A program made the position numbers and the translations under genes. Source: Spizellomyces punctatus DAOM BR117 (lineage: Eukaryota). From it: 64,000 bases of DNA. The stretch lies in NCBI GenBank assembly GCA_000182565.2, contig KQ257454.1, one strand, 5' to 3'. Below the pieces are notes generated by a model, which was given only the letters and a program-made list of their open reading frames with translations, was not told where the DNA came from and made no database searches. The first letter of the stretch is position 1; the number at the start of each line of letters is the position of its first letter. Shown here piece after piece: positions 7,407 through 40,380 of this stretch.

Positions 7407-10400
7407 TTACCTCGCAAATGCATCACTTTCAACCCCAATACCACCACCACCACCACCAGAAATTTTCGTCGATACCCGATCGCCTTTTTTCTGCTGGTGT
7501 TGTTTCTTTGCCTCATAGTATTTTTTCTTTAGATCTTGCAGGTTCCTGTTGAGTACCTCTATCTGGTACTTGTATTCGTTGACTTGAGAGTGGTACATGT
7601 TTAGCTCCGATGCTAGGGCCTTGGATATTTTTTTGTTAGATTATTGTGAATAGATTTTGATACAGACAGCACACATGTAGGTATATTTACCTTTGATTCC
7701 CGAACTTTGGTCCTAACTGCCTCTCTGACTACTCGCAACTCTTCCGCGACTTCCGGCCCAGGCTGTCTCTGCAACACTTCCTTGATCTCTTTGTACAGTT
7801 TTTCTTTTTGATGTATAATCAACTCTTTTTCCACCACCTGCTCCGTTTTGGCCAACAACCGCTTCTGGAGGGTTTGAATTTTCGTGACGAGTTCAAATGT
7901 GGAGGGATCTGATCCGGCCAGTTTCCGCCATCGATGAATGTTGAGTGGGGACGCCAATTCCTCTTCAAGAATCTTGACACGGGTACGTTCCCGGAGGACG
8001 TCACGTTGAAGTCTAAAGATTTCTGAACGAAGTCCGTCGAGATTTTGGGTTTCGACTTGTAGTATGGCCTTTTCGCGACGGAGTTTTTTGATTTCGAGTT
8101 TGCAGACTCGGATGTCTTGCAGGCGTTCACGGTATTGAAGTTCGCCTTTGTGGAGGGTTGAGGTTTGGATTTTGATTTTTTCATAAAGAAGGGAGAGTTC
8201 ATCGTTCCGACGGATGAGTTGGGTACCCAGAATGTCTCGCTCTTGGATGAGGGTTTCATAGTCTTTCTTTTGGCGGAGTCGGTCAGCATCCGCTGTTGAT
8301 ATAATGTGACGGAGTTTGTTTTCTTCGGATTGCTATGGTCGTTCGGGTGCATGAGGACATGGGGAGTAAAGTGCGCTCAATGAGATGATGGTTTACCTGG
8401 TTTTGGATCATTTGCTGGGCATCTTCATATTGTTGTTGAAGCTTGCCAATTTGGACTGATAGTGCCTCCTTCTCTTTTTCCAGTTTGGAGTGCTCAAAGT
8501 GTTCTTTAACGAGTGCTGGTTTATTGTACAGGTGTTAGCCAATTCAACTAAAACTCATCAGCGTTCTCATCCATGTGTGGTAAAGATGCTCACCAGCTTC
8601 TTTATTGGCAATCTCCTCTTTGAGCTGCTCGATCTGGTGTGTCATGATCTTGAGTTTTCGCTTCATTTCGGTGATTTCGTCTTGGGTCTCCACAAGGTTT
8701 TTGGAGTAAAGATTACGGTCCGCCCGAACGTTTTCGTAAAGCGTCTAGATTTGGTATTTCAATTAGTATGTGAATACCCACAATCTTGTCAATCCACAAG
8801 TCTTGCAAACCTGCTGTTCCTTCAATTTCCGTTCCAAGTCTCCAATCTTCTTTCGACAATCAAATAGCATCATCTCCCCAATTTTGACTTCTTCCTCCTT
8901 GCCCACCAGTTCCAAGCGAACTTTGCCAGCCTCATTGATATGTCTATCCCGATCTTTTTCCAGGGAGTAAATGAGTTTGCGCATCTTGGCGGCTTCGTCC
9001 TTGTATCCCATGATTTCTTGTTCAAGATTCCGTTTGGTCTGATCGGCGAGCTTGACGATGGTGACTTGTTTTTGGGTTGCCCCCGTGGCCTTTACGAAGT
9101 TCTTTTGCGCAATGTCACGTTCGCGGCTGAGAGAGTCGAGAGTTTTGTGGAGTTGGTCTAGGTCACGGCGGGCTGCTTCGAGGTCGTGAGAGAGGCCGTG
9201 ATTGGCACCCTGTTGAAAGCCAGGGTGTGTGAGGTTTTTAATATTTTTCATCAGAAGAGCGCTCGATAGAACGTACCTTTAATTGATCTCGTTCGACTTC
9301 AGCTTCCAATTTCGCTTCCTCAATAGCCTTGATCCTCTTTTGCAGCGCATCCCGAACCCTCGCCACGCTTCGATACTCCTCCTTGTACTTTGTCAATTCC
9401 TCTTCCCAGCTCTTAATCTCCCCTGTCTGCTGCTGATTCTCACTCAAAAGTCGTGTGGTTGTCAAAACTTGCTCATCATACTCCTGCTGTAACCGGCCCA
9501 ATCGTGCATTCATGTTTTCCTTGTCCTTTTCGCCCTTTTCGATCTTGGTGCGCTCCTCCTTGAGTGCCACTTCCAACTTTTGAATGGTTTCACGGAGCGC
9601 TTTGAGCTCGCCAACTTTGGTCGCCACGAGATCATCTTTTTTGCTGCACGTATCGACTGTTTGCTTGAGAACAAGTTCCAGTTTTTCTCGGGCACGGGCT
9701 TCGCGGTCTAGTTCAGATTTCTTTGTCGCGAGGAGGTCTTTGAGGGTGAGGAGTTCATGGTCGAGGGTGCCGCGCTCAGATACAAGGCGCTCGACTTTTG
9801 TTTGCAGGTCATCGTTCTCAGTGCGGACGTGCTGCGTTTCGGCTATGGTATCTTCATATTGCTTTTGTAGAGCCTCTTTAGCCTTTTGGCATTTATTGAA
9901 AGAGAAAAGGTATCCTTTGTTTACATTCTATTCTCATGCCGCACAACATCATAAGGCCAAACGTTACCTCTGTTAATTGCCGAATCTGTTCATCTTGCTG
10001 AATCTGAATTTCAATCAACTTGTCTCTTCCAAAATTGCTGTAGCCAGCTGCACCAGGCAATCCACCCGCCCCCGATGTCTCTGCCATCTGCTTTCTCAAC
10101 TGTTCCACCTCCGTTTTCAAATTTGCAATCGCATTCTTTGCTCTGTTTTCCTTCTCGGTGGAAACTTCAACCATTTTCCAGGCCTTTCGAACCTCTTTTT
10201 TGAGCGCGGTGATCTGGCTCCGATCATTCTGACTGAGTTTAAGAGCGGCCTGGACTTTGGCTGCATTAGAAGAGAGTTCGGACGCAAGGTCTTTGCATTT
10301 CTTTACGAGAGACTTTTCGTTTTTCCGAGACTGGAGGAAAAGCTTGTGGAGCTTGTCATATTCGTTTCTTAGCCGGAGAAAGTTGGGATCTGCACCGGGC

Positions 10401-18233: not shown

Positions 18234-20099
18234 ATGACCATGCTATTACGCTCAAGATTCTGCGCCAATCTCCGCCTACCCCTCACCCTACCTTCCTCAA
18301 CTCGCCTCCTCACCACTCCAACATCTCATAATCGTGAACACGGGCATGCCGGAAGAGTATGGTCGTGGGGTATCGGGGTGTGAGTACTTGTCAAAATAAA
18401 CACATTTTGATATCGAAAGGCGGTAATCGTGCTCCTTTTGGTTTGACAGGGACGGTAAACTGGGACATGGCGATCAGAGTCTGGTGACGTGTCCTAAAAT
18501 TGTGGACGAGCTGGATGGGTGTCGAGGTATGGCATCTGTAAATGGGGAAATGGGCATGTCAAAGAAGGACGTTTGTGTGAATTGTGACAATTAGTTCAAG
18601 CAGTCTCCTGTGGAGCGACGCATTCTGTTGCGCTTTTGAAAGGTGTGAGTAACGGCCAGGTGTTTGCTTGGTATGTTGAGTTTGCGTCTATTTCGCTTGG
18701 AAGGTTAACTTGTCGTTTTGGCAACAATGTGGCTCATATATATGATGTTTTCCGCAGGGGCTCCAACTTTTATGGTCAGGTAATGAGCGAGATAGGGCCC
18801 ATCGATCATTAAGCCTTCTATACCGGCATTTGACACCCAAGTTCCAACACCTTTCAGGCAGGCTACATCCCAGAACATTCGGGATTTTTTGACGAAGACG
18901 ATGACGATCAAGTTTCGCTTCCCACTCGAGTAAAGGGCGAGCTGACGAACGAGGACGTTGTTGATGTTGCGTGTGGGGACTATCATACCGTTGCGTTGGC
19001 GAAAAGTGGTAAAGTCTATACCTGGTATGTACTTGCGCCATTCTCGTTCCGATGCAATCCATTTAACTGAACCGATGGGTGTATGATCAATAGGGGAGGA
19101 GGTCTTCTTGGAAATGCAAGCGAGCTCAACGACTCCAATCCCCAACCCCTAACTTTCTTTCACGACATTGGACGACGTGTCCTTTCCATATCAGCTCACG
19201 GACCCACTACAGCCGTCCTTGCCGTCCCATCCGGGAATCTGACAGCTCCTCTTGAAGTGTATGCATGGGGATACATTGCTGCCCCCAACGGCACGTTGCT
19301 AAAAGCCACCAGCCCCGTGTTGCTCGCAGGGGCGTTAAAGTCGCGGGTTGAGAGCGTCGTGGCTGGGAGAGGGTGTTTAGGTGTGATAAGTGTAGATGGT
19401 CAGAAGCGGACATGTACGGTATTTGGAGTTGGGGGAGGACGAGCGCCGAGAGATTTATTTGTAGAGCAAAAATCGGAGAACGTTGTGGACATTTTGGAGG
19501 GGCAACAGAGCGGGGTGGTGCATTGGGGAACTGGAATGAAGAAGATTGCTTTTGGGGATGGTGAGTTTTTCTTTTCCACACTGGCTTTCCGCGCATTCCT
19601 TAAACCTGACTTTTGCCTATGATGCATCAGACTTTGGCTTGCTATTACAAGGTATGGGAAGCCTAGAACGTTGAGTCCACGTCAGTCCACATAGCAGCTC
19701 ACAAATTCTCTCCACACAGAGAATGGTACCCTCAACACCCTTCGCCTCTCAAGCACCGCAACTGTATCAGATCCCGAACCGCTGCAACTAACCAACATTA
19801 TCGACATGTCCATCGGACCACAGGCAGTCGTCTGTCTTGATTCTGCAGGCCAGATATTTGCCTGGGGCGATGAGTTCTTGTTTTCCCAATCTAAACAAGA
19901 CGAACCAAAGAGCTGGTGGGAAATTTGGCGAGATCGGGGACAAGAGCAGCATAAAGAACAAGTTCAGAAAAAGTCGTTAATTGACAAGATTGTGACGGAG
20001 GAGCCGAGACGAGTTGGGGTTTGTCAAGGGGCGCGGGGTGTTGCGGTTGGCTGGGATCACTTTTTGTGTCGTGGATTGGATCAAGCGGGAGACATATGA
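18234..20099 (+). CDS. RCC1-repeat protein, probably mitochondrial
   Basis: VWSWGIG-DGKLGHGD, VSCGATHSVAL, VACGDYHTVALAKSGKVYTW and VAVGWDH repeats. Arg-rich N-terminal presequence. Multi-exon. Confidence 0.8.
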
Positions 20100-20569
20100 T
20101 GGTGCAGTTTGGCAGACTTTTGCAGGTTTCGTAAGTTATTTAGAGCAAGTAGTAATAGAGGGTGAAAAAGATGTGAATTTTGCAACAATATCATGAAATG
20201 GTGATTGGAATGTGGTGGTAATGATGCCGAGTCTGTTATAACATCAATAAACACCTGATATACATGATGGAAAGGAAATAAGAATATGTGTTGTTGTACG
20301 CATAGGAAAGAAGACATAAAAAAGACATATGAGAATAGTGATATGATAGCGCACAGTTTCTTTGACATATAGGAATATCTCGAGAAAACAATGACAAATG
20401 AACGTTCTCCAGTCAAATCCATATGTTAAGAGAACGCCAACACACAATGAAGACAAAAAAAAACAACAGAAAGATTGTACAATACAATGTGTCAGAAGCC
20501 CACCAACCCAAAGCTAGATTCCTGCCCGATTTCTCCCAAGGTCCACTAAATGAGCTATATATGAAATAT

Positions 20570-21041
20570 TTACGTTAGGCAGTCGAGGCAGCAGCAGAGA
20601 CAAGCTCCAAGGGCACTAAACAAAGCCAAAAGGTTAGCAAAATCGAGTAACCTCAATGATAGCCACAAAATAAAAAGACCTACCATCCATAGCAAAGTGA
20701 ATTATCTTTCTTTTGCGGAGGAGGCTGAGCGATAACAACCGAAGGTCCTGGCTGAGCATAGTAGCCACCTTGAGCGTTTGGATAACCACCTTGCTGAGGG
20801 TAACCTCCTCCCGGAGGTTGTTGGCCTGGGTAGCTTGGACTAGGATAGGGGGGTTGATTTGGTGCGCCGTATTGTTGGTAAGGGGGATACGCTCCGCCTT
20901 GCTGTGGAGGTGGATAGCCTTTATCTGTACGTTATTGTTTCGCAGTTAGTTTTGCTTCCTTGGGAAATGACGGCCAGATCTCTGCTTACCTTGGGAAGGC
21001 TGTTGTCCTTGATTGTAGTAGTAAGGCGGCTGGTCACCCAT
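20570..21041 (-). CDS. CYSTM-type cysteine-rich tail-anchored small protein (3 exons)
   Basis: Spliced product MGDQPPYYYNQGQQPSQDKGYPPPQQGGAYPP...QPPPQKKDNSLCYGCALGACLCCCLDCLT*. P/Q/Y/G-rich body plus a CLCCC tail. Absent from the ORF track. Confidence 0.85.
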
Positions 21042-21345
21042 AGCTGTGTGCTGCGGACGTACGTTGGGAGGGATGAGAGATAAAAGGGAAGGTTGAAGGA
21101 ATGGTGCGAAAACGACGGACGAGCAAGCCTTTATATCTGAGCGTTGCCCAGCCCAAAAAGCCGCACAGCTGAACTTTCCAACTTGGCGCGGCACAGTCAC
21201 TTAAGAAACCAGCCTCAGGGCGGCCTCAATGGGATCGCGCCGCTTGCGGCTTTGTTTACTTTGATAGGACCAGCCAGGCCCATCTGCTTGAGGTATAAAG
21301 TATATTTACAAAACATTACTATCCATGGCTCTCCCCGTTTGTTTA

Positions 21346-21885
21346 TTAAGCTCTATCCTCGAGTGCATAGCATTGTGCCAGCGCTCGTTGTATGTGTGCT
21401 TTTTGCTTTCCAGGCGTGCAGGCATTCCTCGCGCATTGTTGGACTATCCCCAAAGGGTTAGAACTAGAAGCATGAATAGGAAAATGGAGATGGGACTTAC
21501 GTGATGGGAGTTTGCTCAAGGAAAAGTGCTCAAGGGAGGCGGTACAATCGTAATAGCGGGATATAGGGCGGTAAGTGTTCTCAGAACTTTGGTATGGGTA
21601 GCTATCCCTGTCCTTGGATTTGTCGTAGGCTTCTGGATATGAAGGGGGCATTTTGTACGCAGCTTCTTCTTTCCCGCCCCCGTGATCTGCTTTTGCCGTA
21701 GACCTGAGATGTGATACTTTTGGTGCGGTGTAGTGACTATAATGCACTTCTATCGTAGTATCTTTGTATTCGCAAGCATCTCCACATCGATAATTCCAGT
21801 AGGATGGTTTACTTGTGGGATTGGATGCAGCCATCGCGGTCGTAAGGAGCGTGAGCCCGATCAGCGTTGTTGCATATAGTAGCAT
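21346..21885 (-). CDS. Small secreted protein of unknown function
   Basis: Signal peptide MLLYATTLIGLTLLTTAMA and 6 Cys. Probable in-frame 57-nt intron at 21444-21500 (GTAAGT..CTAAC..TAG). Confidence 0.6.
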   Translation of the reverse strand: MLLYATTLIGLTLLTTAMAASNPTSKPSYWNYRCGDACEYKDTTIEVHYSHYTAPKVSHLRSTAKADHGGGKEEAAYKMPPSYPEAYDKSKDRDSYPYQSSENTYRPISRYYDCTASLEHFSLSKLPSRKSHLHFPIHASSSNPLGIVQQCARNACTPGKQKAHIQRALAQCYALEDRA

Positions 21886-23303
21886 ATCAGATGTTCTATG
21901 AATGTTCTTAATGCGGGGGCATCTCGACTTTTGCTTTTATGACTTTGGGTTCCTCGTTGGCTGAATCCAGCCATAGCCATGTCCAACCACATCGTCTTGT
22001 TGAAAGAGTCCGCAGCTGTACCCTCAAAAATGCATATCCTGGGCTTTGATGTGCGGTGAGCCGTACTCAGCCCGCCATCCAAAGTGACGAGGCTGTGGAC
22101 CTCACAACGCGTCCGAAAGATGTCCGAAAGCGAAGAATCATCAGATGGGTTAGAACAGGATGGGGTTGTCGGGACAGCGAATATATTTAGGGAACTGCGA
22201 AGCTCACACCCATGCTTGTTATTGTCAGGCCCCCATATGACATATCAAAGGTTAGTATTACAGTTTGGTATTGCCATGTTTTTCCAAACCCCGTTGGAAA
22301 TTGAATACTCAAAAATTAAGCAAACCAAAAGGAATAAGAATGGACAAGGTACAAACCTACACAAATACATGCAGACACCATCAACGCTCTTGTTCTCAAC
22401 CCATTCAAACTCCAGTTATTGTCATATTTCAGTGGTGTTTCTTCCAAACTACTTGGATTAAAACTGTGCAGTTATCGTTTCATACATGCATAATATTCAC
22501 GGACAAGAGGCCAACTGATAATTAACATTCTCAAGTAGTGTAGAGGTGGCAGAAACTGGCACTAACTACTACACCAGGGAATAAACCGGCGACAACCGGT
22601 TCGGAAAAGCCAAGTAATTCCCTCCTTACAACCAACTACTGCTACTAGGCCCAATTACACATGCAATACATTACGGTTGTTCTAACCGGGTAACTAAGCC
22701 CACCACACGAGAGAAATCCTACTAAGCCCTTGATTCCGAAATTCTTCAGTCGGAGGATGTTTCAGATACTAAGGTAGATCAGAATAATTAGACTGGGAAT
22801 ACGCGTGGGAAAATACAAAGATAATGCATACCTGCGATCGTTGCAGCATAGTAGTAGCAGCGTTTGCAAGGGGTTATGTTGTTGTCGTTGTCGGGTGGGC
22901 GAGGTCCTTGACACCACCACATCTGTATTCTCATGATTCGACCGACAGTCGCGATGAGAAGAGTTGCACAGATGCTTGCGAGTCGAGGATGGGTAAAGAG
23001 GAAAGGGGAAAGAGACAGAAGGTCCCCCTTTTATAGACCCTCGGCATGCGCCTCACCGCAGTTTAAAAAAAAAGTTACATTAGCATGCCACACCGCTGCA
23101 TGCCTCACCGCTTTGGGCGACAGAGGGGGTGCTGATTATGCGATATGACTAACCGGATTAATCCGGATAATAATGAGTTCTAGTGCCATTTTCAATCACC
23201 GCCACACTATGTACAAAGTTTTGAGTACTGAATCTCAGTGTAGCTCATTACTTTACACAGTCTTTGACTCTAAGTAAATGATTGTACGCTAGATACTACA
23301 CAA

Positions 23304-23460: not shown

Positions 23461-26400
23461 TTAAGAACGAATGATTTTTTGACCATCTCGGGTATAACTG
23501 ACTTCCCGTCGCGGGCATACAATGCCACACGGCTTGTACATCTTGAGAATAAAATGGCAGAAACGCAGAGATCTGCAAACTGCTGTGAGAAAGACTGCCT
23601 CGCCGTAGGTGAAGCGCAAGTGGATATCTGTTCAAAAAAGGAACACATTAGATTCAAAGCTCTGTAGACAAACAAAAAAGAAAGAGATTATCTTACGTGA
23701 TCGAACCCAGTAGCCTTTCCACAGAGCTTGGATTCTGGCCGCGGCACGATGTCTTGTTCGCACCTTTTCCGCGCGAACCCGCCTGTGAAGATAATTTCTC
23801 CAGGCACTTTGCAGAATATAGGCACCACGAATGCGAAGTAATTCCGCTCTGAAAATTAGAAATAAATAAATAAATACCAATAGAGTTCCTTGGTGTGAAA
23901 TTCGGGTCATACCGATGACGGGCAACAGATTCTCCGAGAGCACGCAAACGCTGCCGAAGATCTGGTCGCAAGAGCTGACGCAAAAAGTATCCTGTTTCCA
24001 AAAAAAATGTTTAAAAATCCAAAGGAATTCCCATCGAAAAATAGAGATGAGCATACCGCGATAGACTCTTTGAATGGTTGTCGCTGCGTGATGTTTCTGA
24101 ACGCAATTTAGAATTAAAAGAATATTCAAGCCGATTTTTTGATGGACATGGATGTTCTTACCTCCCGTAATCTGCGTATCTCGGACATTTTCTTGTGTAG
24201 AGGTCGCCACCAATGAATAATGGTATTGACCGCCCGATTGAGATCTTGTTCACAAAAAGAATCAGAGGTGTATTTCCAAAAAAAAAAAAAATAAAACTAC
24301 AAGCGACATTGTTGGGGTGACATACCTTCGATCCTGGCATTGTATTTGGTTGCGATGGGTGAGTTTTTGAACATGTGCCAGTTGCGCCACTTGCGCTGAA
24401 TAACCGTTGCTGATCGGTGAAGTTCTGGGATAGGTTGCTGGTAGATACAGCCTGGAAGGATACTGCTACTTAATCGCACTGTTCAAGCTGCAATTGAAAA
24501 TCTTGTACCTACGCAACAATGCTGTCCAAATAAACTTTCGTCGGCGCCAATTCTTTTGGATCTTGGCTGCTGCTTCGTTCTTTAAGGCGCGTAGTCTCTT
24601 CAACTTTTTTCTCGCCATCATCTGTATGAGTGTTGCTGCAATGTACTGCTCCTCCCGAATCTTTGCTCGCATTATACGACCGCGGTGTCGTCTCCACGCT
24701 GTGATTGGATCAATTCAGTCATATCGTGGTGCAACGCAAATGCTGTCGCAATTCTGCCACGTACCTCGTTGGATTTTGGTGCATGCTAGCGAACGTCGGT
24801 AGATGGACGGTGGGAACTGTGAGAAGCTTCGCTGCCCCTCCACGGCCAGGGTGGCTCGGAAGATGTTCTTTTCCAGTGCCTGTGCCGAGCAGACGTTTAG
24901 TTTTAAAAGGGCAAGATGGCGATCCTAAGGATATTTCTTCTAACCAGATGCAATTTTTCTTCCTCATCCTGATTGAGCCCTTCTCGCTCAGGACCAACGC
25001 TGTCCAAAATACTGACTGCGTCCAACGCTGGAAAGTCCATAAAATATATATGAGTCTCTCGTGTCTCCTTGTCAGATCAGAATACGTTTGCTCTAGTTAC
25101 CTTTCGGCTGTTGGTGACGCAAATTCTCGTTGCAAGGCTGTGCGTTGACATCGTACGAAAAGGGACGATCGCCAAAGTTGACGCGAATCTGCGGTCGTTC
25201 TGTGTACTGGAGCTCGGTGTCGTTGACTACTCAGTACAATGTTAGGGCGGGTGGATGCAGCTTGCAAACCTCCGGAACCTGTTACCTTTTAACGCAAAGG
25301 TCGGCACCAGTTCAGACGACCAGATAAGCGATCTAGTGGAGCAAGGTGTTAAACAACCAGTCGATATACTCATCGGGAAAGTGACACTCGCCTCTGGCGT
25401 GTCTGTTCCGCCTTGTCAAATGCCGCTGCTCCGATCCCAAAGGCCGGCGGTTGGACCTTCCCGTCCATAACAAGATTAATGTGCCCATCGTAGAGATCAA
25501 CCAATACGCCCCAGGTTCGGAATCCCATAAAGAACAGTGGATCTTCTTGAATTTCTGCGTACCTTTGACGGGCAAACATGCCAAGGTGAGTAATTCTCTA
25601 GAACATAACTAGTGGCAAATGACTGGGACTCACGGGTATTCTTCATCCTTGTAGAAGATATGGCCGGTCGAAGAAAAGCCAAAGCTGTATTCGTCTTGCC
25701 CAGGATATCGTGCATGGGCACTCGCCTGGATACGCCTTGCCATGGACAACCCTACACAATGCAAGTCATTATCGTGGCTCATGTCCCCTTACAAAATGCC
25801 TGGATGGATGCAGTATTTACCTACTCTCCATGCAGTCTTGTCCGGGGTGGAAAACTCAAAATAAAATCTATGCTCGCGCTGCAAGCGATAATTGATCTGC
25901 GCAATGTAACTCAAAGCTGTTCTCGTGTCCAAAATGCTCGAGTCCTCTCCTCCTACGCCAACATCATATCCCAACGCAGCTAGCCGTCTTTTCAGGACGC
26001 TTACACCATAGAGCGGATATGCCAGGACTGCTGCTGGCAGCTGATGTGATGGATGAACAGCATCAACGAGTCGAGCCAGTAGCTGCACAAAAGAATACTT
26101 TTCACTTTGACCGCGGTAGGTGAGAATCTGGTCCTGCGTTTGTTTCACCATCTCGCGAGCCGTCGGGCGAGCCATGAGTCGTACCTTCCAAACTCCGGCA
26201 GTGGCATAGACGCAACCCCAGTCAGCTCGCAGTTCGTCAGCAGGCTGACGTCGGACACCGGCTTCTGAAGAGGTCAATCGGGAGAGATGGAGTTCGAGAC
26301 GATTTGGATGTACAATTACTGCCGTCGGGACAATCGGTGCGGCGAGAAACATCTACACTTCACGTTGAAGGATATTTGCTTTACTCTACCACAACGCGCT

Positions 26401-27815: not shown

Positions 27816-29433
27816 ATGTTGCTTCGCATCCTGAGCCTGGTGCTCATTCTGGCGGTCTTGTTGCCCATTGGCACATTCGCTGCTCCCGCTGCTCAAGAAG
27901 AACGTAGGGACTTTCGAGGCTGGATCAACAGCATTGGAGATTCCATTAGAAATATTGTCCGCCCATCTCCCACTAATTCTGCACATGCCACCTCGACCAC
28001 CACTCCCTCTCGTTCCTCACCTGCTCGACCTTCCGCAAATCCTTTGCTCAGGTCCAACAACAACCTGGCAGCAGCCCATCCATTGAGCTTTGTTCCTTTT
28101 CGTGCCGCGGTCGCTGCCAACTCCGAATCAGACGGGGACTTTGACCCAGCGACAGAGATTCCTTCCCTCACATATCTGGAAACTGCCTTTGGTAAATTCG
28201 AACGTAAATTTGACGCACTTCCAAAATCTGGCGAAGCTCCCCAATTGCCGTGGACAAGCACATACTGGCCATCAACGTATGATGGTATCAACTACCGGTG
28301 GAAGAGCCCAGAAATTGGATCACCCGTCGAGAAATATGCTATTGTAATGTCTCGAGTCCTTTGAATCATTGGAAACTTTTTGCTTACCGTCGGTTTCGTA
28401 GGCGTTCAATATCAGCTCTCGTGCTCTCGGCAACCTTGTATCAAAACAGCAAGGCATAGACGCCCCCTGGCATACAAAGCAATGCGTTGGAGATTTCAGC
28501 TGCGCTAGCGGTGACCGCTGCGTATCCCGGCGTGGTTCAGATGTCAAACTATGCGTAGCAGATTGGGAGGGTATCTGCGACGGATGGACAGCGGCGTCCA
28601 TTATGATGCCTGAGCCTAGATGTGCTGTCACATTCAACGGAGTGGTGCGTTTTTGGATATTCTGAATGATTGATTGAGTATAGTGCCGTAACATTTTTGC
28701 ATACTTTTAGAAATTCAATGTAGCAGACCTCAAGGGACTCATGAGTGCCTTTTTCGCCTCCGATAGCGGAACCCACTACTATAGCATGAGCATGTCTGGA
28801 AGGTGCAACGTCTACAACCCCAATACTGACAGGAATGGATATTATTCGGATCCAAACTGTGGCGATGCGACCGCTGGCATGTTCCATATTTTCATAACTA
28901 ACATGCTGGGACGCTTGCAAAAGTAAGTGAAACTTTCTTTGCTGCTATCTGAAAACATGTTCCTCATGTGCTCTCGTTTCAGGCCTTTTGCCTTTGATAG
29001 AGAGACGACCGGTCAGGTCTGGAATCAGCCTGTCCATGGCTACCAAATCATAAAGACCCAGAACTTGGCCCGCTTCTTTGCCCAGACCAGACTCGGCTTT
29101 AACTACAAGCTTGACCCGAGTGCTGTCAAGTTCGTTTACGTAGAGCTCGCCGTCAAGTGGATCTCGGAAGTCGAGTACTTTGATGAGATGAACCTCAACT
29201 ACCGAGACAACATGGCTGCCTTGCAAAAGACCCTGAAAACGACTAGTTATGAATACGTTTTGGAACTCAACGCTGCCGGTGAGATCATTGGTGGCGGATG
29301 GGTTAATGCCTCAAAGAACAGGCAGCCCGATTTCATGTGGGTGCCTACTGGCGTCGACAAGAGGGCTAGCGCATTCGGCGCCATCAAATTTACTGACCTC
29401 GAGAAGCTATGGGCACAGGCTGTCAACTGCTAG
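27816..29433 (+). CDS. Secreted transglutaminase-elicitor family protein (Phytophthora GP42/M81-like)
   Basis: Signal peptide, PWTSTYWPSTYDGINYRW, SPVEKYA, WEGICDGW..ASIMMPEPRCAVTFNGV, DLKGLMS, GMFHIFITNMLG, VWNQPVHGY and YEYVLELNAAGEIIGGGW..PDFMW. 3 introns. Confidence 0.9.
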
Positions 29434-29614
29434 TTCTTTTACAATACCTCATATAAACCGTCCTACTGGTGGATAGAATATGCTAGATTTGTCATACCAA
29501 AGATAGAAGGTAGATCTTTCAAAGGTCGATCAAATAATAGAGCTTCTTACCAAGATATATACAGATAACTACAGATAACTACTAGTAGACCTCGATGGGC
29601 CAACATTCCCGTAT

Positions 29615-30401: not shown

Positions 30402-30824
30402 GCTTATGCCGGTTGATGTTGACACTCAAGAAGCGTTTTATCAAGCCTCCAAGGAAGCGAGAGCAGGAGGATGGCTTTTTGCTCTCGCGAAATGGCACCC
30501 ACCCTGGTTGTGCAAGTCGCAACACTCAAGTCCGAAGTCACGTGGAACCGCGCTCGATTGGGCTCCGCGCGCCAAGCTCACTGTTTACATTTGCATTTTG
30601 GACCAGCCGGTCGTCGATCTTAACAGCATTTCAAAAGCAGGCAGATAGAACTTTTCGCCACCGGTCCGCATTCCCCGTTGTATTTCAGGATTCGATACGG
30701 AACAGGAACTTCCACGAGTGAGGTCGGCCTCTGAAGACCTGCTATCACCTGCCATTCCAGCAGTTTCTGCCTGGAGCACACACCCGTCATACTCGCCGTT
30801 TTCTACTGCAATCCCGAATACAAG

Positions 30825-31684
30825 ATGATGGACTTTATATTTGGCTCCCGGAAAACCCCGGCAGAGCTTCTTCGACAGCACCAACGTGCTCTCAATAGGG
30901 CGCAACGCGACCTTGACCGCGAGCGCTCGAAACTAGAGCAGCAGGAAAAGAAGCTTATTGTGGACATTAAGAAAGCTGCTAGGGCCAATCAAATGGTGAG
31001 TTTAGGGTGCGGGAGTACTTTTGGACTTGGGATAAGTGTAGAATGTATGACAGTGCCACGCCAACTGACACTATCCACTGGTCTAGAATGCATGCAAAAT
31101 CATGGCAAAGGACCTGGTCCGAACACGCCGGTACATTCAAAAGTTCTACCAAATGCGAACACAACTACAGGCAGTTGGATTACGGATACAGGTGAGATTT
31201 GACCTGGCACATGAATCTTCAAGTATTGACACCCGTCATCACAGACACTCCGTTCAAACCAACAAATGGCGGAAGCTATGCGTGGCGTAACCAAAGCTAT
31301 GCGTTCCATGAATAAACAAATCAACCTTCCAGGCATCCAAAAAATCATGATGGAGTTTGAGCGTGAGAGCGAAACGATGGACATGAAGGAGGAAATGATG
31401 AACGATGCCATTGACGATGTAATGGAAGAGGAGGATGATGAGGATGAAAGTGATCAGATTGTCAATCAGGTCTTGGATGAGATTGGCATCGGTTTGGATC
31501 ACTCGGTGAGTCACGTTGCATTCTCGCCGTCTTGGATGTGTAGCTCATGCCAGGGATTTCGTAGCTTCCCGAAGCGTCAAAGGCAAGAGTTGGTGGTGCC
31601 GCGGTAAAAGAATCGCAAGCAGAGGCACTTTTAGCAGATGATGCCGCTCTACAGGCGCGGTTGGATAACTTACGGAGAGAATAA
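30825..31684 (+). CDS. DID4: ESCRT-III subunit Vps2/Did4 (CHMP2A)
   Basis: KTPAELLRQHQRALNRAQRDLDRER, MAKDLVRTRRYIQKFY, IMMEFERESETMDMKEEMM and DDAALQARLDNLRRE*. Confidence 0.96.
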
Positions 31685-33473: not shown

Positions 33474-34851
33474 ATGCCATCGCCGCCAAAGCCGTGGGAA
33501 AGAGCAGGTGCCGCGGCGCAAGCTGGTCCCGCCCCCACTGCAAGCGCCTCGACACCCGCAACTACAACATCCTCCACAACCGCTCCCCCTGCCATCCCAG
33601 CTCGTCCTTCTACATCTACCATGAACACTACAATGACATCAAATACCCTGAATAGACCAGGTAAAAATCTTAATAGGGTCGATTTTCCTGTTTTGAGCGG
33701 ATTTCAAATGCAGTCTTTCTTTAGGTTTCGGAACCGGTGCTGGATATAATTCTTACACTACGGGGACGGGCTATGGAAGTACATATGGCAACTCGTACGG
33801 TGGAAGCTCTTACGGGTCTTACTCCTCACCATATAATCGCTATGGTTCTGGGTACGGAGCGGGAGGTTATGGTTCGACATACGGGTCCTCCTATGGCGGA
33901 TATGGTTCATATTCACCGTACAATCGCTATGGAAGTGGCTATTCTCCATACAATCGCTTTTCCTCTCCATACGGACCTGGTCCAGGTGGTCCAGGTGCCC
34001 CAGGAGAAATGCCTCTCTCTGCACGCATGGAGCAGTCAACCCAAGCAACCTTCAACACACTCGACCAAATCGTTCAGGCTTTCGGAGGGTTCGCGCAAAT
34101 GTTAGAGTCCACATTCATGGCTACTCATTCGAGTTTTATGGCAATGGTTGGAGTAGCTGAGCAATTTGGCAATCTCCGATCATATTTTGGTCAGATTTTT
34201 TCGCTCCTTTCGTTGTACCAAGCGGCGCGACGACTAGTGTGCAGACTGACTGGACGACAGGCACCTGTCGATGCATCGCAACTTGATCCAGACGAATTCA
34301 AAGCGTTTGAAGACCGCAAGAAAGCAAGCAAGAAACCAATATGGGTTTTCTTGTTCTTCACAATCGGCATCCCTTGGTTGATATCAAAACTTTTCCAAAG
34401 ACTACAGAGACAGCGTCTTGAAGCCGCTGCTGCTGGTGCTACTGCTGACCCTTTAACAACAGGCCTCATCGGGCCCGACGGCCGCCCATTACATCCAAGT
34501 CAAATACGTGATCTAGAGTTTTGTCGCGCTGTATATGATTTCGCTGGCGAATCTCCTGCGGAGCTATCGCTGAAGAAAGGGGACATTGTGGCTGTGCTCA
34601 GCAAGTTGGATCCAGCGACTGGACAGCCTGGAATGTGGTGGCGAGGCCGATTGCAGAGTGGGGAGATGGGCATGTTCCCATCCAATTATGTGGAGATCAT
34701 TCAGAAACAGGGAACGGCGCAATCATCGCCACCATTGCCTCCTGCTGGCGGGCCGGCCGGAATACCAATGCAAAACGTTCCGGTACTCGATCCTGCTGCC
34801 TTCAATCCTGATGCAATAATGGATGGAGACTTTGGGCCAATCATGCAGTGA
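33474..34851 (+). CDS. PEX13: Peroxisomal membrane peroxin Pex13
   Basis: SPPKPWE start, YG-rich region, STQATFNTLDQIVQAFGGFAQMLESTFMATHSSF and a C-terminal SH3 domain. Confidence 0.97.
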
Positions 34852-38626: not shown

Positions 38627-38859
38627 GGTCCACTATATCACACAGTCAATCCACTCTGTCGCCACGCTCCATTAAACGCTTCCTGTCCCAAGATCGGCAG
38701 CCCATGCAAGATCTCCACACGATTGATTGACAAGGCGGATCAAGCGGGCTCTGCTGCGCCACGACCCAGTGAATCACGTGACATTGAGAAAGTTCACCCG
38801 CATCGAGGCAACCAGTTAGTTGAGGTGAACGAAGTCATCACCGACAGCCGTTGCGTACC

Positions 38860-40380
38860 ATGCTTGCAACAAAGCAGTTGACAGTGTCGGCGTTGAAGCG
38901 CTCATCTTTGACCGCGACAGCTGTCGCTGCGCGCTCCGTTCAGCCTCGTGCAACCTTTGCAACTGCTGCCCCTGACCCATCACCTAACCGCACGTACGGA
39001 AACCTCAGCGATGAAGACCGCATATTCACTAACCTTTACGGAAAGCACGACTTTCGCTTAGCGGGTGCACTCAAGCGTGGTGACTGGTACAAGACCAAGG
39101 AAATTATCTTGAAAGGCCATGACTGGATCATTAACGAGATGAAGACATCAGGCTTGCGTGGACGAGGTGGGGCTGGCTTCCCCTCTGGCCTCAAGTGGTC
39201 ATTCATGAACAAGCCAGGGGGTCCAGATGGCCGTCCACGATACTTGGTGGTAAATGCAGATGAAGGAGAACCGGGTACCTGCAAGGACCGCGAGATTATG
39301 CGCCACGACCCTCACAAGCTTATTGAAGGTTGCTTAGTGGCTGGTCGCGCGATGAGCGCCAACGCAGCCTACATCTATATCCGTGGTGAATTCTACAACG
39401 AAGCCTCCAATCTTCAGGAAGCTATCAATGAGGCTTACAAAGCGGGCTTGATTGGCAAGAATGCATGCGGCTCTGGTTACGATTTCGATGTATATGTGCA
39501 CCGTGGTGCTGGAGCTTATATTTGCGGAGAGGAAACAGCTCTTATTGAATCCATTGAAGGAAAGCAGGGAAAACCTCGTTTGAAGCCTCCATTTCCTGCC
39601 GACGTGGGATTGTTCGGTTGTCCCACAACTGTGGCGAATGTGGAAACTGTGGCTGTGGCGCCGACTATCTTGCGTCGTGGAGGTTCATGGTTTGCAGGTC
39701 TCGGCCGTGCCCGTAACAGCGGCACTAAGCTGTTCTGTATTTCCGGTCATGTGAACAAACCTTGCACTGTGGAAGAGGAGATGTCTATTCCCCTCCGAGA
39801 CCTCATTGACAAGCATTGCGGCGGTGTTCGCGGTGGATGGGATAATCTTTTAGGTATCATTCCTGGCGGTTCTTCTGTTCCTGTTCTGCCAAAGAAGATC
39901 TGCGAGGAAGTTTTGATGGACTTTGATTCTCTTCGTGATGCGCAGTCTGGGTTGGGCACTGCAGCGGTGATTGTCATGGACAAGAGTACCGATATGGTGC
40001 AGGCGATCTCAAGGCTAAGTGCGTTTTACAAGCATGAGAGTTGTGGACAATGTACACCATGTCGTGAGGGTACGGGTTGGTTGGCCAACATGATGGCACG
40101 ATTCGAAACCGGTAACGCGAAGAAGGCTGAGATTGACATGATCGAGGAGCTTAGTAGGCAGATTGAGGGGCATACCATTTGTGCATTGGTGGGTTTCATC
40201 TGGTCGATACATGGAATGGCTACTGTATATACTAACGTGAACACTTCTTTTACATAGGGAGACGCAGCGGCTTGGCCTGTGCAAGGTCTCATCCGCCATT
40301 TCCGCCCGGAGATTGAAAAGAAGATTGATGAGTTCCACGCGCGTCGGCGGCTTGAAGAGCCTGTGGCGGCACAAGCTTGA
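38860..40380 (+). CDS. NDUFV1: NADH:ubiquinone oxidoreductase 51 kDa flavoprotein subunit
   Basis: [60 protein letters not shown] and TICALGDAAAWP (one late intron). Confidence 0.99.

Follow-up and report, generated by a model that had tools for sequence, protein, structure and literature searches.

A GP42-type TGase_elicitor gene resident in the chytrid Spizellomyces punctatus belongs to a family with a single eukaryotic origin

SPPG_03366 of the chytrid Spizellomyces punctatus DAOM BR117 is a resident, intron-bearing chytrid gene and a new member of the already known PF16683 (TGase_elicitor) family. All eukaryotic members of this family have a single origin beside Myxococcota/Bdellovibrionota-type bacterial genes, and the Spizellomycetales form the earliest branch of the eukaryotic clade. 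Taken as a whole, the combination of this identity, a wall cross-linking function assigned by homology, an altered active-site motif and a shared eukaryotic origin is in our judgement the best explanation of our observations, and probably the correct one.

The gene occupies positions 27816-29433 on the plus strand of the window, by which we mean the whole stretch of 64,000 nucleotides that was analysed, and runs through four exons and three introns from an ATG at 27816 to a TAG stop at 29431-29433 (Table 1). All three introns are of the GT..AG type, and the spliced translation agrees letter for letter with the database protein P0001 (477 aa) of the same strain, so that the four-exon model bears out the original prediction of a real gene with three short introns. 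The prediction that these introns share the style of those in neighbouring genes fared less clearly: GT..AG introns of 43-148 nt would link up the coding regions next to the gene, yet each junction offers several candidates. The encoded protein consists of a signal-like N-terminus, a disordered linker of about 80 residues and a single GP42-type papain-fold transglutaminase domain. The N-terminus is hydrophobic, MLLRILSLVLILAVLLPIGTFA being followed by A in a cleavage-like TFA/A site. All the sequence motifs listed in the original prediction are present, although the gap between YWP and DGINYRW is three residues and not two.

Table 1. Features of the SPPG_03366 gene in window coordinates
Feature	Position	Strand	Residues and remarks
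Exon 1	27816-28343	+	residues 1-176; Pfam PF16683 profile 3-59
Hydrophobic signal-like N-terminus, exon 1	27816-27881	+	~residues 1-22; read from sequence
Disordered Ala/Ser/Pro/Arg-rich linker, exon 1		+	~residues 24-105; composition; pLDDT <50 over residues 15-98
TGase_elicitor domain start, exon 1	from 28170	+	from residue 119
Intron 1	28344-28401	+	58 nt, GTAATG...TCGTAG, phase 0; excision yields the database protein exactly
Exon 2	28402-28644	+	residues 177-257; PF16683 profile 61-144
Four-Cys loop, exon 2			C204, C210, C216, C227
Predicted catalytic Cys235, exon 2	28576-28578	+	aligned with the 3tw5 active-site position
Asp236, exon 2	28579-28581	+	directly after Cys235 in WEGICDGW
EPRC motif with Cys250, exon 2			Cys250 specific to the eukaryote clade (character table)
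Intron 2	28645-28710	+	66 nt, GTGCGT...TTTTAG, phase 0
Exon 3	28711-28922	+	residue 258 to codon 328 bases 1-2; PF16683 profile 145-212
Exon 3 residues			D263, Cys289/Cys307 pair, D309, invariant FH motif (H316), N321
Intron 3	28923-28982	+	60 nt, GTAAGT...TTTCAG, phase 2
Exon 4	28983-29433	+	codon 328 base 3 to residue 477 and TAG; PF16683 profile 216-361
Pep-13-equivalent strand VWNQPVHGYQIIK, exon 4	29017-29055	+	residues 340-352
Further exon 4 motifs			YEYVLELNAAGEIIGGGW, PDFMW, C-terminal Cys477

The gene sits on a contig of 1.54 Mb, with genes for an IQ protein, Snf7, Pex13 and NDUFV1 on its two flanks within the window, and its coding GC of 0.51 is like that of the neighbouring coding pieces (0.42-0.51). 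Together with the spliceosomal introns, this setting agrees with the full integration that had been proposed for the gene. Contamination, in which a piece of bacterial or oomycete DNA had strayed into the chytrid assembly, would account for the odd taxonomic distribution described below and for nothing else. It conflicts with three GT..AG introns on a contig of this size, with eukaryotic housekeeping genes on both sides and with orthologues in three other Spizellomycetales genera; we consider it refuted by the introns and the flanking genes, its residual probability being negligible.

Membership of the family follows from sequence and predicted fold alike. An HMM search, suggested as a check alongside the original prediction, returned a full-length match to the GP42 family PF16683 (E 8e-79, 265.5 bits, profile positions 3-361 of 361; cut-off 25 bits), and the four exons each exceed this cut-off singly and in colinear order. 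In a phmmer search of the PDB the sole match was 3tw5, the structure of GP42 (E 1e-53). The AF2 model of SPPG_03366 (pLDDT 80.4, pTM 0.75), compared by Foldseek with 350,542 PDB chains, retrieved 3tw5_A (E 6e-32, TM 0.88, rmsd 3.1) and this chain alone at E <= 0.001, the second-best match having an E of 0.04.

As to who carries the gene, word-index homologue searches, each scoring 8000 candidates over a limited sampling of taxa, gave named fungal matches in four genera of Spizellomycetales, in Quaeritorhiza and in Catenaria only, and a further search with a profile of seven fungal proteins (again 8000 candidates scored) added no other named fungi. Within these searches, the view that this is not a standard fungal gene stands. 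Among 73 matches there was one S. punctatus protein. The gene is carried by Spizellomyces (Spizellomycetaceae) and by Geranomyces, Fimicolochytrium and Thoreauomyces (Powellomycetaceae), at 49-51% identity; the order has carried it since its ancestor at least, and the ancient presence originally proposed finds its support in this occurrence in both families. The accompanying description of the family as one of oomycetes and certain bacteria, Vibrio for example, is too narrow. The PF16683-type family comprises 2438 cluster representatives and is abundant in Myxococcota and Bdellovibrionota; bacterial genomes hold at least 580 stretches encoding relatives, and Myxococcota account for 70 of the best 80 loci. 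Identity to the chytrid protein is 29-38% for proteins of Myxococcota and Bdellovibrionota compared with 31-37% for those of oomycetes.

Our main tree (46 rows, IQ-TREE with LG+C20 PMSF and a careful search) was computed without Vibrio homologues, and without redundant rows and long-branch rows such as P0212, P0163, P0110, P0207, P0178, P0166 and P0160. In this tree, seven fungal rows, six oomycete rows and nine rows without an organism label form a eukaryote clade (100/99), with all 16 named bacteria on one side of a single branch of the same support. The clade adjoins Myxococcota, the nearest bacterial clades being Myxococcota/Oligoflexia, and it recurs with an SH-aLRT of 92 in an 85-row tree obtained by a quick search only. 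Because many of its rows have no organism label (9 of 22 among the 46 rows, 26 of 39 among the 85), our use of the term eukaryote clade relies on the rows with a name and on Cys250, which is found in 39/39 eukaryote-clade rows and in none of the 46 others. Two further characters follow the same division: a Cys at the Cys477 column occurs only in eukaryote-clade rows, and an insertion of two residues, relative to the closest Myxococcota rows, is present in 26/26 of the aligned eukaryote-clade rows shown.

Let us consider, however, a direct acquisition from bacteria by the Spizellomycetales, independent of the oomycete and the other fungal genes. A FastTree analysis of 285 rows would favour it, placing the Spizellomycetales beside short, Bdellovibrionota-type bacterial proteins (local support 91) and apart from the other eukaryotes. 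Identity to Myxococcota/Oligoflexia proteins, reaching 38%, is at least as high as that to oomycetes, and the C-D motif discussed below also appears in six rows outside the Spizellomycetales, all lacking an organism label, of which P0085 groups with the named bacterium Nannocystis and P0069 with named Bdellovibrionota. Given the C20-PMSF trees and the discrete characters, we set this placement aside as probable long-branch attraction, since the Spizellomycetales stem measures 0.9-1.1 changes per site. With a site-heterogeneous model and the long rows removed, the eukaryote clade receives 100/99, and Cys250, the Cys477 column and the two-residue insertion all join the chytrid gene to the other eukaryotic ones. 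An independent bacterial acquisition thus appears very improbable to us.

Within the eukaryote clade, the Spizellomycetales (100/100) are sister to the remaining 18 rows (97/88), and the oomycetes, Catenaria and three unlabelled rows form another group (100/100). The AU test rejects the seven fungi as a single clade (p 3e-58), a result in keeping with the view that this is not a standard fungal gene. Joining the Spizellomycetales with the oomycete clade costs 14.6 lnL (p 0.028), and reciprocal monophyly of the chytrid-like and oomycete-like rows gives p 0.026, values near 0.03 that are marginal and concern groups picked after inspection of the tree. A test holding six chytrid rows as one clade led to rejection (p 5e-5) but was set aside, being confounded by the unlabelled P0104, which is closely paired as a sister with Quaeritorhiza P0013. 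The Spizellomycetales are not nested in the oomycetes, and the label 'oomycete-type' does not suit their gene: it branches outside all other eukaryotic rows and retains the Cys289/Cys307 pair, which is present in 4/4 Spizellomycetales, 13/14 rows of the mid-grade and 44/46 bacterial or other rows, and in none of the 21 oomycete/Catenaria rows.

These observations bear on the transfer of the gene from an oomycete donor to the ancestor of the Spizellomycetales. Such a transfer would fit the expansion of the family in oomycetes, three Phytophthora species having 14-17 PF16683 proteins each (PMC7285336), against the single S. punctatus protein found; it would also fit the common origin of the chytrid and oomycete genes, and the root within the eukaryote clade hinges on a long branch. 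The sister position of the Spizellomycetales, the cost of joining them to the oomycetes, the retained Cys pair and an identity to oomycete proteins of just 31-37% weigh against it, and on the tree position, the AU result and the Cys pair we disfavour an oomycete donor as improbable. Since the Spizellomycetales form the earliest eukaryotic branch, we infer that the chytrid gene did not come from the sampled oomycetes, although the same long-branch pull could have made the Spizellomycetales falsely basal in the 46-row tree. The rest of the distribution would be explained by movement of the gene between zoosporic fungi and oomycetes, possibly from fungus to oomycete. Tentatively, we may join these elements into one history, possible but doubtful in its entirety. 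A single transfer from a Myxococcota/Bdellovibrionota-like bacterium, and not from Vibrio, would have brought the gene to eukaryotes, with zoosporic fungi as its first hosts; a chytrid-like fungus would then have passed it to the peronosporalean oomycetes, from which an oomycete-type copy would later have gone back to a fungus, Catenaria. In the Spizellomycetales the most ancient eukaryotic version would survive, with a Cys-Asp or Cys-H316 site in place of the Cys-His of GP42.

The active site sets the Spizellomycetales apart in one position. Residues C235, H316, D263, D309, W341, N342 and P344 are invariant in 25/25 aligned members, and yet the 'CH' motif of GP42 is replaced in SPPG_03366 by Cys and Asp. 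The residue after the catalytic Cys is D in 4/4 Spizellomycetales, the Cys itself being kept. The W.G.C motif is present in 276 of 285 family rows, and in these the position after the Cys is occupied by H (252 rows), D (10), N (10), P (2) or E (2). With Asp in the place of the CH-motif His and the other invariant residues kept, the chemistry in the Spizellomycetales would involve a Cys-carboxylate or a Cys-H316 arrangement, or else be altered, and SPPG_03366 may, judging from this substitution, be no transglutaminase at all. If the enzyme is altered or dead, cross-linking would give way to wall binding, a structural role or hydrolysis, the last by a protease or deamidase activity. This alternative bears on function only and can stand beside the evolutionary account. 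It draws on the presence of D236 in all four Spizellomycetales at a position where His prevails in the family, on the description of that His as catalytic and part of the GP42 active site (PMC10318531), and on the loss of the nucleophile elsewhere in the family (Ser in P0178, Gly in P0166). Conversely, in lineages dispersed over the family, D, N or E recurs there beside an intact Cys, and the retention of the nucleophile and every other invariant residue across four genera only about 50% identical argues for a conserved active site. We regard the altered enzyme as possible, if on the unlikely side.

Assuming that the enzyme is active, its mode of action may be sketched by homology. The SPPG_03366 protein would be exported to the wall or the extracellular space, where Cys235, located where a helix begins, would serve as the nucleophile, forming a thioester with a protein-bound glutamine that a lysine amine would then resolve. 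The outcome would be cross-linking of wall proteins during wall deposition at encystment or germling growth. The suggestion that the protein acts in the cyst or the wall of the cell follows by analogy from what has been proposed for the Phytophthora enzymes: in P. infestans, family members are located in the cyst and appressorium wall, and the inhibitor cystamine or RNAi leads to deformed germ tubes and appressoria (bioRxiv 10.1101/2021.11.23.469665).

Irrespective of the details of function, the family has a greater age and a broader distribution than a picture of oomycetes plus Vibrio allows. Literature searches, with supplementary tables outside their scope, found no paper naming SPPG_03366 or treating a transglutaminase in Spizellomyces, none, among the matches listed, on chytrid or fungal members of PF16683 (TGase_elicitor, IPR032048), and none linking GP42, horizontal gene transfer and fungal members. 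The passage of a review that bears on the subject confines the homologues to oomycetes and some Vibrio and has the oomycete ancestor acquire the gene from Vibrio (PMC4915311). In place of this picture we find a large family whose closest bacterial kin, among the named genomes that we scanned, belong to predatory Myxococcota and to Oligoflexia, and in which zoosporic fungi have deep-branching members of one eukaryotic origin with the oomycete genes. With these members, gene flow linking fungi and oomycetes can be put to the test on a specific example, that of a wall-building enzyme. S. punctatus is transformable, and it would provide a non-pathogenic host in which to probe the role of the fold and the need for a His beside the nucleophile.

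GP42/Pep-13 is the textbook oomycete pattern sensed by plant immunity, and W2 and P5 are the residues of Pep-13 that Brunner and colleagues reportedly identified in 2002 as critical. The corresponding strand of SPPG_03366 is identical to Pep-13, VWNQPVRGFKVYE (PMC9879208), at 7 of 13 positions, including the first six residues, VWNQPV, and hence W2 and P5. The Pep-13 core is not specific to oomycetes, a Myxococcales protein being identical to it at 11 of 13 positions.

Among known systems, Phytophthora sojae GP42 (3TW5) and the P. infestans M81/Pep-13 enzymes share with SPPG_03366 the full PF16683 domain, the fold (TM 0.88 to the model) with an identical position of the nucleophile Cys, the four-Cys loop, Cys250, the terminal Cys and, as read here, a secretion-signal-like N-terminus. 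They differ in being only 31-37% identical, in having the CH-motif His where SPPG_03366 has Asp, in the Cys289/Cys307 pair, lost in oomycetes, and in copy number, which is 14-17 per Phytophthora genome in the data cited above from PMC7285336 and one in S. punctatus as found here; the host is an oomycete for GP42 and a chytrid for SPPG_03366. The Myxococcota/Oligoflexia proteins (Nannocystis radixulma L006, Archangiaceae L066, Oligoflexia L002), 29-38% identical over residues ~128-475, share the four-Cys loop, the Cys289/Cys307 pair and the invariant residues of the catalytic region. They lack Cys250, a Cys at the Cys477 column (0/46) and the two-residue insertion, nearly all have C-H in contrast to the C-D of SPPG_03366, and they are intronless and in many cases longer (400-1200 aa) or equipped with extra domains. 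Quaeritorhiza haematococci P0008 and P0013 and Catenaria anguillulae P0017 are zoosporic-fungal members with the eukaryote-clade characters. Unlike the C-D Spizellomycetales, they have C-H, score 430-539 bits against the Pfam profile compared with 261-287, and branch apart, Catenaria lying inside the oomycete clade and without the Cys pair. Lastly, the minimal transglutaminase of the Bacillus subtilis Tgl type works with a Cys-Glu dyad. As a papain-fold cross-linker whose nucleophile Cys has no canonical His partner, Tgl is a mechanistic analogue only of SPPG_03366, belonging to a different family with a different fold decoration.

SPPG_03366 is a resident chromosomal gene of the chytrid Spizellomyces punctatus, and it encodes a protein with the fold of GP42, the cell-wall transglutaminase of Phytophthora sojae. 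Four open pieces between its start and stop codons are parted by three GT..AG introns (see the table), and scripted splicing yields a 477-residue translation identical, letter for letter, to P0001, recorded as 'uncharacterized protein SPPG_03366 [Spizellomyces punctatus DAOM BR117]' on a 1.54-Mb contig. Coding GC is 0.512 and GC3 0.559, with 0.42-0.51 for each measure in the adjacent coding pieces, and the introns have a GC of 33-41%. These introns, the coding GC near that of the neighbours and the eukaryotic genes on either side rule out a contaminant. For the introns of the neighbouring genes, GT..AG candidates span 43-148 nt, several of them fitting each junction. tblastn found no further copy of the gene within the 64-kb window. 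Just 3' of the stop codon, at 29560-29582, the 10-nt unit TACAGATAAC stands in about 2.3 head-to-tail tandem copies. Elsewhere, 8001-10000 has a strong A/T strand asymmetry (AT skew -0.297, the remainder of the window lying within about 0.10), and 20001-22000 carries a local GC-skew peak of 0.154, above the window background.

Features of SPPG_03366 and matches of neighbouring open reading frame pieces (window coordinates)
Feature	Position	Strand	Remark
Start codon ATG	27816	+	window sequence
Intron 1	28344-28401	+	58 nt, GT..AG
Intron 2	28645-28710	+	66 nt, GT..AG
Intron 3	28923-28982	+	60 nt, phase 2, GT..AG
Stop codon TAG	29431-29433	+	window sequence
IQ-motif protein match	23632-24246	-	ORF piece
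Snf7 match	30735-31199	+	ORF piece
Peroxin-13 match	33697-34848	+	ORF piece
Complex I 51-kDa subunit match	38824-40254	+	ORF piece

Membership of the protein in the PF16683 (TGase_elicitor) homology family is secure. The family HMM search that the original prediction had proposed gave a match over nearly the full profile (E 8e-79, 265.5 bits, positions 3-361 of 361), and each of the four exons singly exceeds the 25-bit cut-off, in colinear order. All the motifs listed in that prediction are in the protein, the first of them (PW.S.YWP..DGINYRW) with three residues rather than two separating YWP from DGINYRW. A sequence search of the PDB matched one entry, 3tw5 (GP42; E 1e-53, residues 118-454). 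The AlphaFold2 model, built from a 25-sequence alignment (mean pLDDT 80.4, pTM 0.75), is disordered at residues 15-98 and confident in the domain from about residue 105; with Foldseek against 350,542 PDB chains it retrieved 3tw5_A (E 6e-32, TM 0.88) and nothing else below E 0.04. A putative signal peptide (MLLRILSLVLILAVLLPIGTFA/A) opens the protein, ahead of a linker of some 80 residues in which Ala, Ser, Pro and Arg abound, and the C-terminus lacks a hydrophobic tail. The domain holds nine Cys (204, 210, 216, 227, 235, 250, 289, 307 and 477), and C235, D263, D309, H316, W341, N342 and P344 are among the residues invariant in the 25-member alignment.

The nucleophile and the family core are thus intact, and the departure lies next to the nucleophile, where Asp replaces His. 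C235 aligns to the Ser of the WFGISHAW stretch in the 3tw5 chain, the crystal being reportedly of the C290S mutant. A survey of the papain superfamily (PMC10318531) describes GP42 as having no canonical His, the His right after the Cys (the 'CH' motif) contacting instead a strand Asn or a helix Asp. The S. punctatus motif is WEGICDGW, with Asp where the 'CH' motif has His, and the proteins of Thoreauomyces, Fimicolochytrium and Geranomyces have Asp at the same position. Among the 276 of 285 family rows with the W.G.C motif, 252 have His after the Cys, 10 each have Asp and Asn, and 2 each have Pro and Glu. Because all four Spizellomycetales have Asp, and 10 of 276 rows do, the change is order-wide in Spizellomycetales and unusual, and it recurs in other parts of the family. 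The retention of His at that position by 91% of the family speaks for a catalytically altered or dead protein, a reading we regard as possible though rather doubtful; the chances that the C-D protein is an active acyl-transferase are perhaps even or somewhat better. Two rows of the oomycete clade, P0178 and P0166, have Ser and Gly, respectively, in the column of the Cys235 nucleophile, and P0166 also has FY where the family has WN; these are likely pseudoenzymes within an expanded oomycete family.

With P0001 as query, a word-index search gave 73 proteins; the named ones comprise those of Thoreauomyces humboldtii, Fimicolochytrium jonesii and Geranomyces michiganensis (Spizellomycetales, 49-51% identity), two from Quaeritorhiza haematococci (34-37%), one from Catenaria anguillulae (34%), six from oomycetes (31-37%), and two with bacterial names, a Bdellovibrionota MAG and an Oligoflexia/Methylotenera-labelled protein. 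In NCBI taxonomy, Spizellomyces and the three Powellomycetaceae genera belong to separate families, so that both families of Spizellomycetales have the gene; Quaeritorhiza is Chytridiomycetes incertae sedis and Catenaria belongs to Blastocladiomycota. A search with a profile built from the seven fungal proteins brought no fungal names beyond these, and since both searches scored 8000 candidates each, absence from other taxa is weak evidence. When 1.84 billion cluster representatives were searched exhaustively with HMMER, 2438 relatives reached E <= 1e-3, of which 1479 reached <= 1e-10 and 239 reached <= 1e-30. Scanning bacterial and archaeal genomes, one per species, gave at least 604 pattern matches, 580 of them confirmed; the best 80 of these match residues ~128-475 at 29-38% identity, and 70 are from Myxococcota and 2 from Oligoflexia (Bdellovibrionota). 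In two Oligoflexia proteins of ~1200 aa, L002 and L003, the PF16683 domain lies at residues ~590-920. Among presumably bacterial proteins, P0030, P0031 and P0066 join ankyrin repeats to PF16683, and P0021, P0023 and P0026 join it to PF01483 (P_proprotein).

For phylogeny, matches were trimmed to the domain and 285 of 301 rows kept (domain coverage >=75%), without Vibrio homologues. FastTree on all 285 placed Spizellomycetales (100) beside a 52-row clade of short bacterial proteins (91), with the remaining fungi grouped with oomycetes, apart from Spizellomycetales. A quick IQ-TREE search (LG+C20+F+G4, PMSF; 85 rows) made Spizellomycetales sister (SH-aLRT 92) to a 35-row clade of Quaeritorhiza, Catenaria, all six oomycetes and 26 rows without organism label. 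With the longest branches removed (46 rows), a careful search was completed; it gave a 22-row clade (seven fungal, six oomycete, nine without label; 100/99), divided into Spizellomycetales (100/100) and the other 18 rows (97/88), among which oomycetes, Catenaria and three unlabelled rows group together (100/100). Together with two Myxococcota clades, one of them containing an Oligoflexia protein, this clade makes up a three-way split that is not resolved (98/95), and all 16 named bacterial rows fall on the same side of one branch (100/99). The Spizellomycetales gene is therefore early-branching, not nested in oomycetes. AU tests on the 46 rows rejected monophyly of the seven fungal rows (delta-lnL 137.8, p 3e-58) and of the six chytrid rows (p 5e-5, confounded by an unlabelled sister row of Quaeritorhiza); for groups defined after the tree was seen, p was 0.026 for monophyly of all eukaryotic rows outside the oomycete clade and 0.028 for Spizellomycetales plus the oomycete clade.

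Discrete characters were scored on the 85-row alignment. Between EKY and W.G.C, the eukaryote clade (the clade that holds the fungal and oomycete rows) and the closest Myxococcota/Oligoflexia clades alike have the four-Cys loop, which is thus not peculiar to eukaryotes. All 39 eukaryote-clade rows and none of the 46 others have Cys250, the C of the EPRC motif; Cys in the C477 column is confined to eukaryote-clade rows, some others having a Cys one or two positions off (alignment A1); and behind the AF... motif all 26 printed eukaryote-clade rows are two residues longer than the nearest printed bacterial rows. These three characters speak for one eukaryotic origin that takes in the chytrid gene; in the tree, that origin lies beside Myxococcota-type genes. 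The Cys289/Cys307 pair, present in 44 of 46 bacterial/other rows, all four Spizellomycetales and 13 of 14 intermediate-grade rows, and in none of 21 oomycete/Catenaria rows, gives the tree its polarity, with a derived form in oomycetes and the bacterial state retained in the chytrid.

The idea of an ancient horizontal acquisition, now fully integrated, stands; the label 'oomycete-type' attached to SPPG_03366 does not suit an early-branching gene that has kept the Cys pair. The simplest account would be a single transfer from a Myxococcota/Bdellovibrionota-like bacterium to a eukaryote, residence in zoosporic fungi, and passage between fungi and oomycetes. Topology and the Cys pair suggest the direction fungus to oomycete, but do not establish it, given the long stem of Spizellomycetales and the many rows that lack an organism label. 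The label does fit the Catenaria protein, P0017, because it lies inside the oomycete clade (100/100), adjoining Lagenidium (91/42), and has likewise lost the pair, its two positions being Tyr/Tyr, a state found also in Lagenidium, Globisporangium and P. infestans. P0017 looks like the product of a separate transfer from an oomycete to a fungus. Catenaria and Lagenidium both parasitise invertebrates.

By analogy, the S. punctatus protein would be secreted and act on the cell wall, perhaps cross-linking Gln and Lys of wall proteins as the wall-less zoospore forms its wall. A preprint on P. infestans locates relatives in cyst and appressorium walls, reports their high expression in zoospores and cysts, and describes deformed or burst germ tubes and appressoria upon cystamine or RNAi treatment (bioRxiv 10.1101/2021.11.23.469665). 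The SPPG_03366 protein is already public with PF16683 precomputed, and the domain assignment as such is therefore not novel; a literature search of main texts found no paper on chytrid or other fungal PF16683 members, on SPPG_03366, or on the Myxococcota relatives. We rate the finding as an undescribed active-site variant in a known family.

The plant-sensed GP42 peptide Pep-13 (VWNQPVRGFKVYE, PMC9879208) corresponds in SPPG_03366 to VWNQPVHGYQIIK, 7 of 13 residues being identical. The Myxococcales protein L035 has VWNQPVRGFRVTQ, identical at 11 of 13, and the Myxococcota/Oligoflexia loci L002 and L066 also retain VWNQPVRGY; in sequence, therefore, the pattern that plants sense is not peculiar to oomycetes, and the motif is a core strand conserved across the family rather than something that oomycetes invented. 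According to the published view, only oomycetes and some Vibrio have homologues, and the gene passed from Vibrio to oomycetes (PMC4915311, which cites Reiss et al. 2011). The original prediction likewise called the family typical of oomycetes and certain bacteria such as Vibrio; oomycetes do carry it, as do zoosporic fungi, and no Vibrio is among the best 80 of the at least 580 confirmed bacterial loci, most of those 80 being from Myxococcota. On these data, the published view is too narrow.
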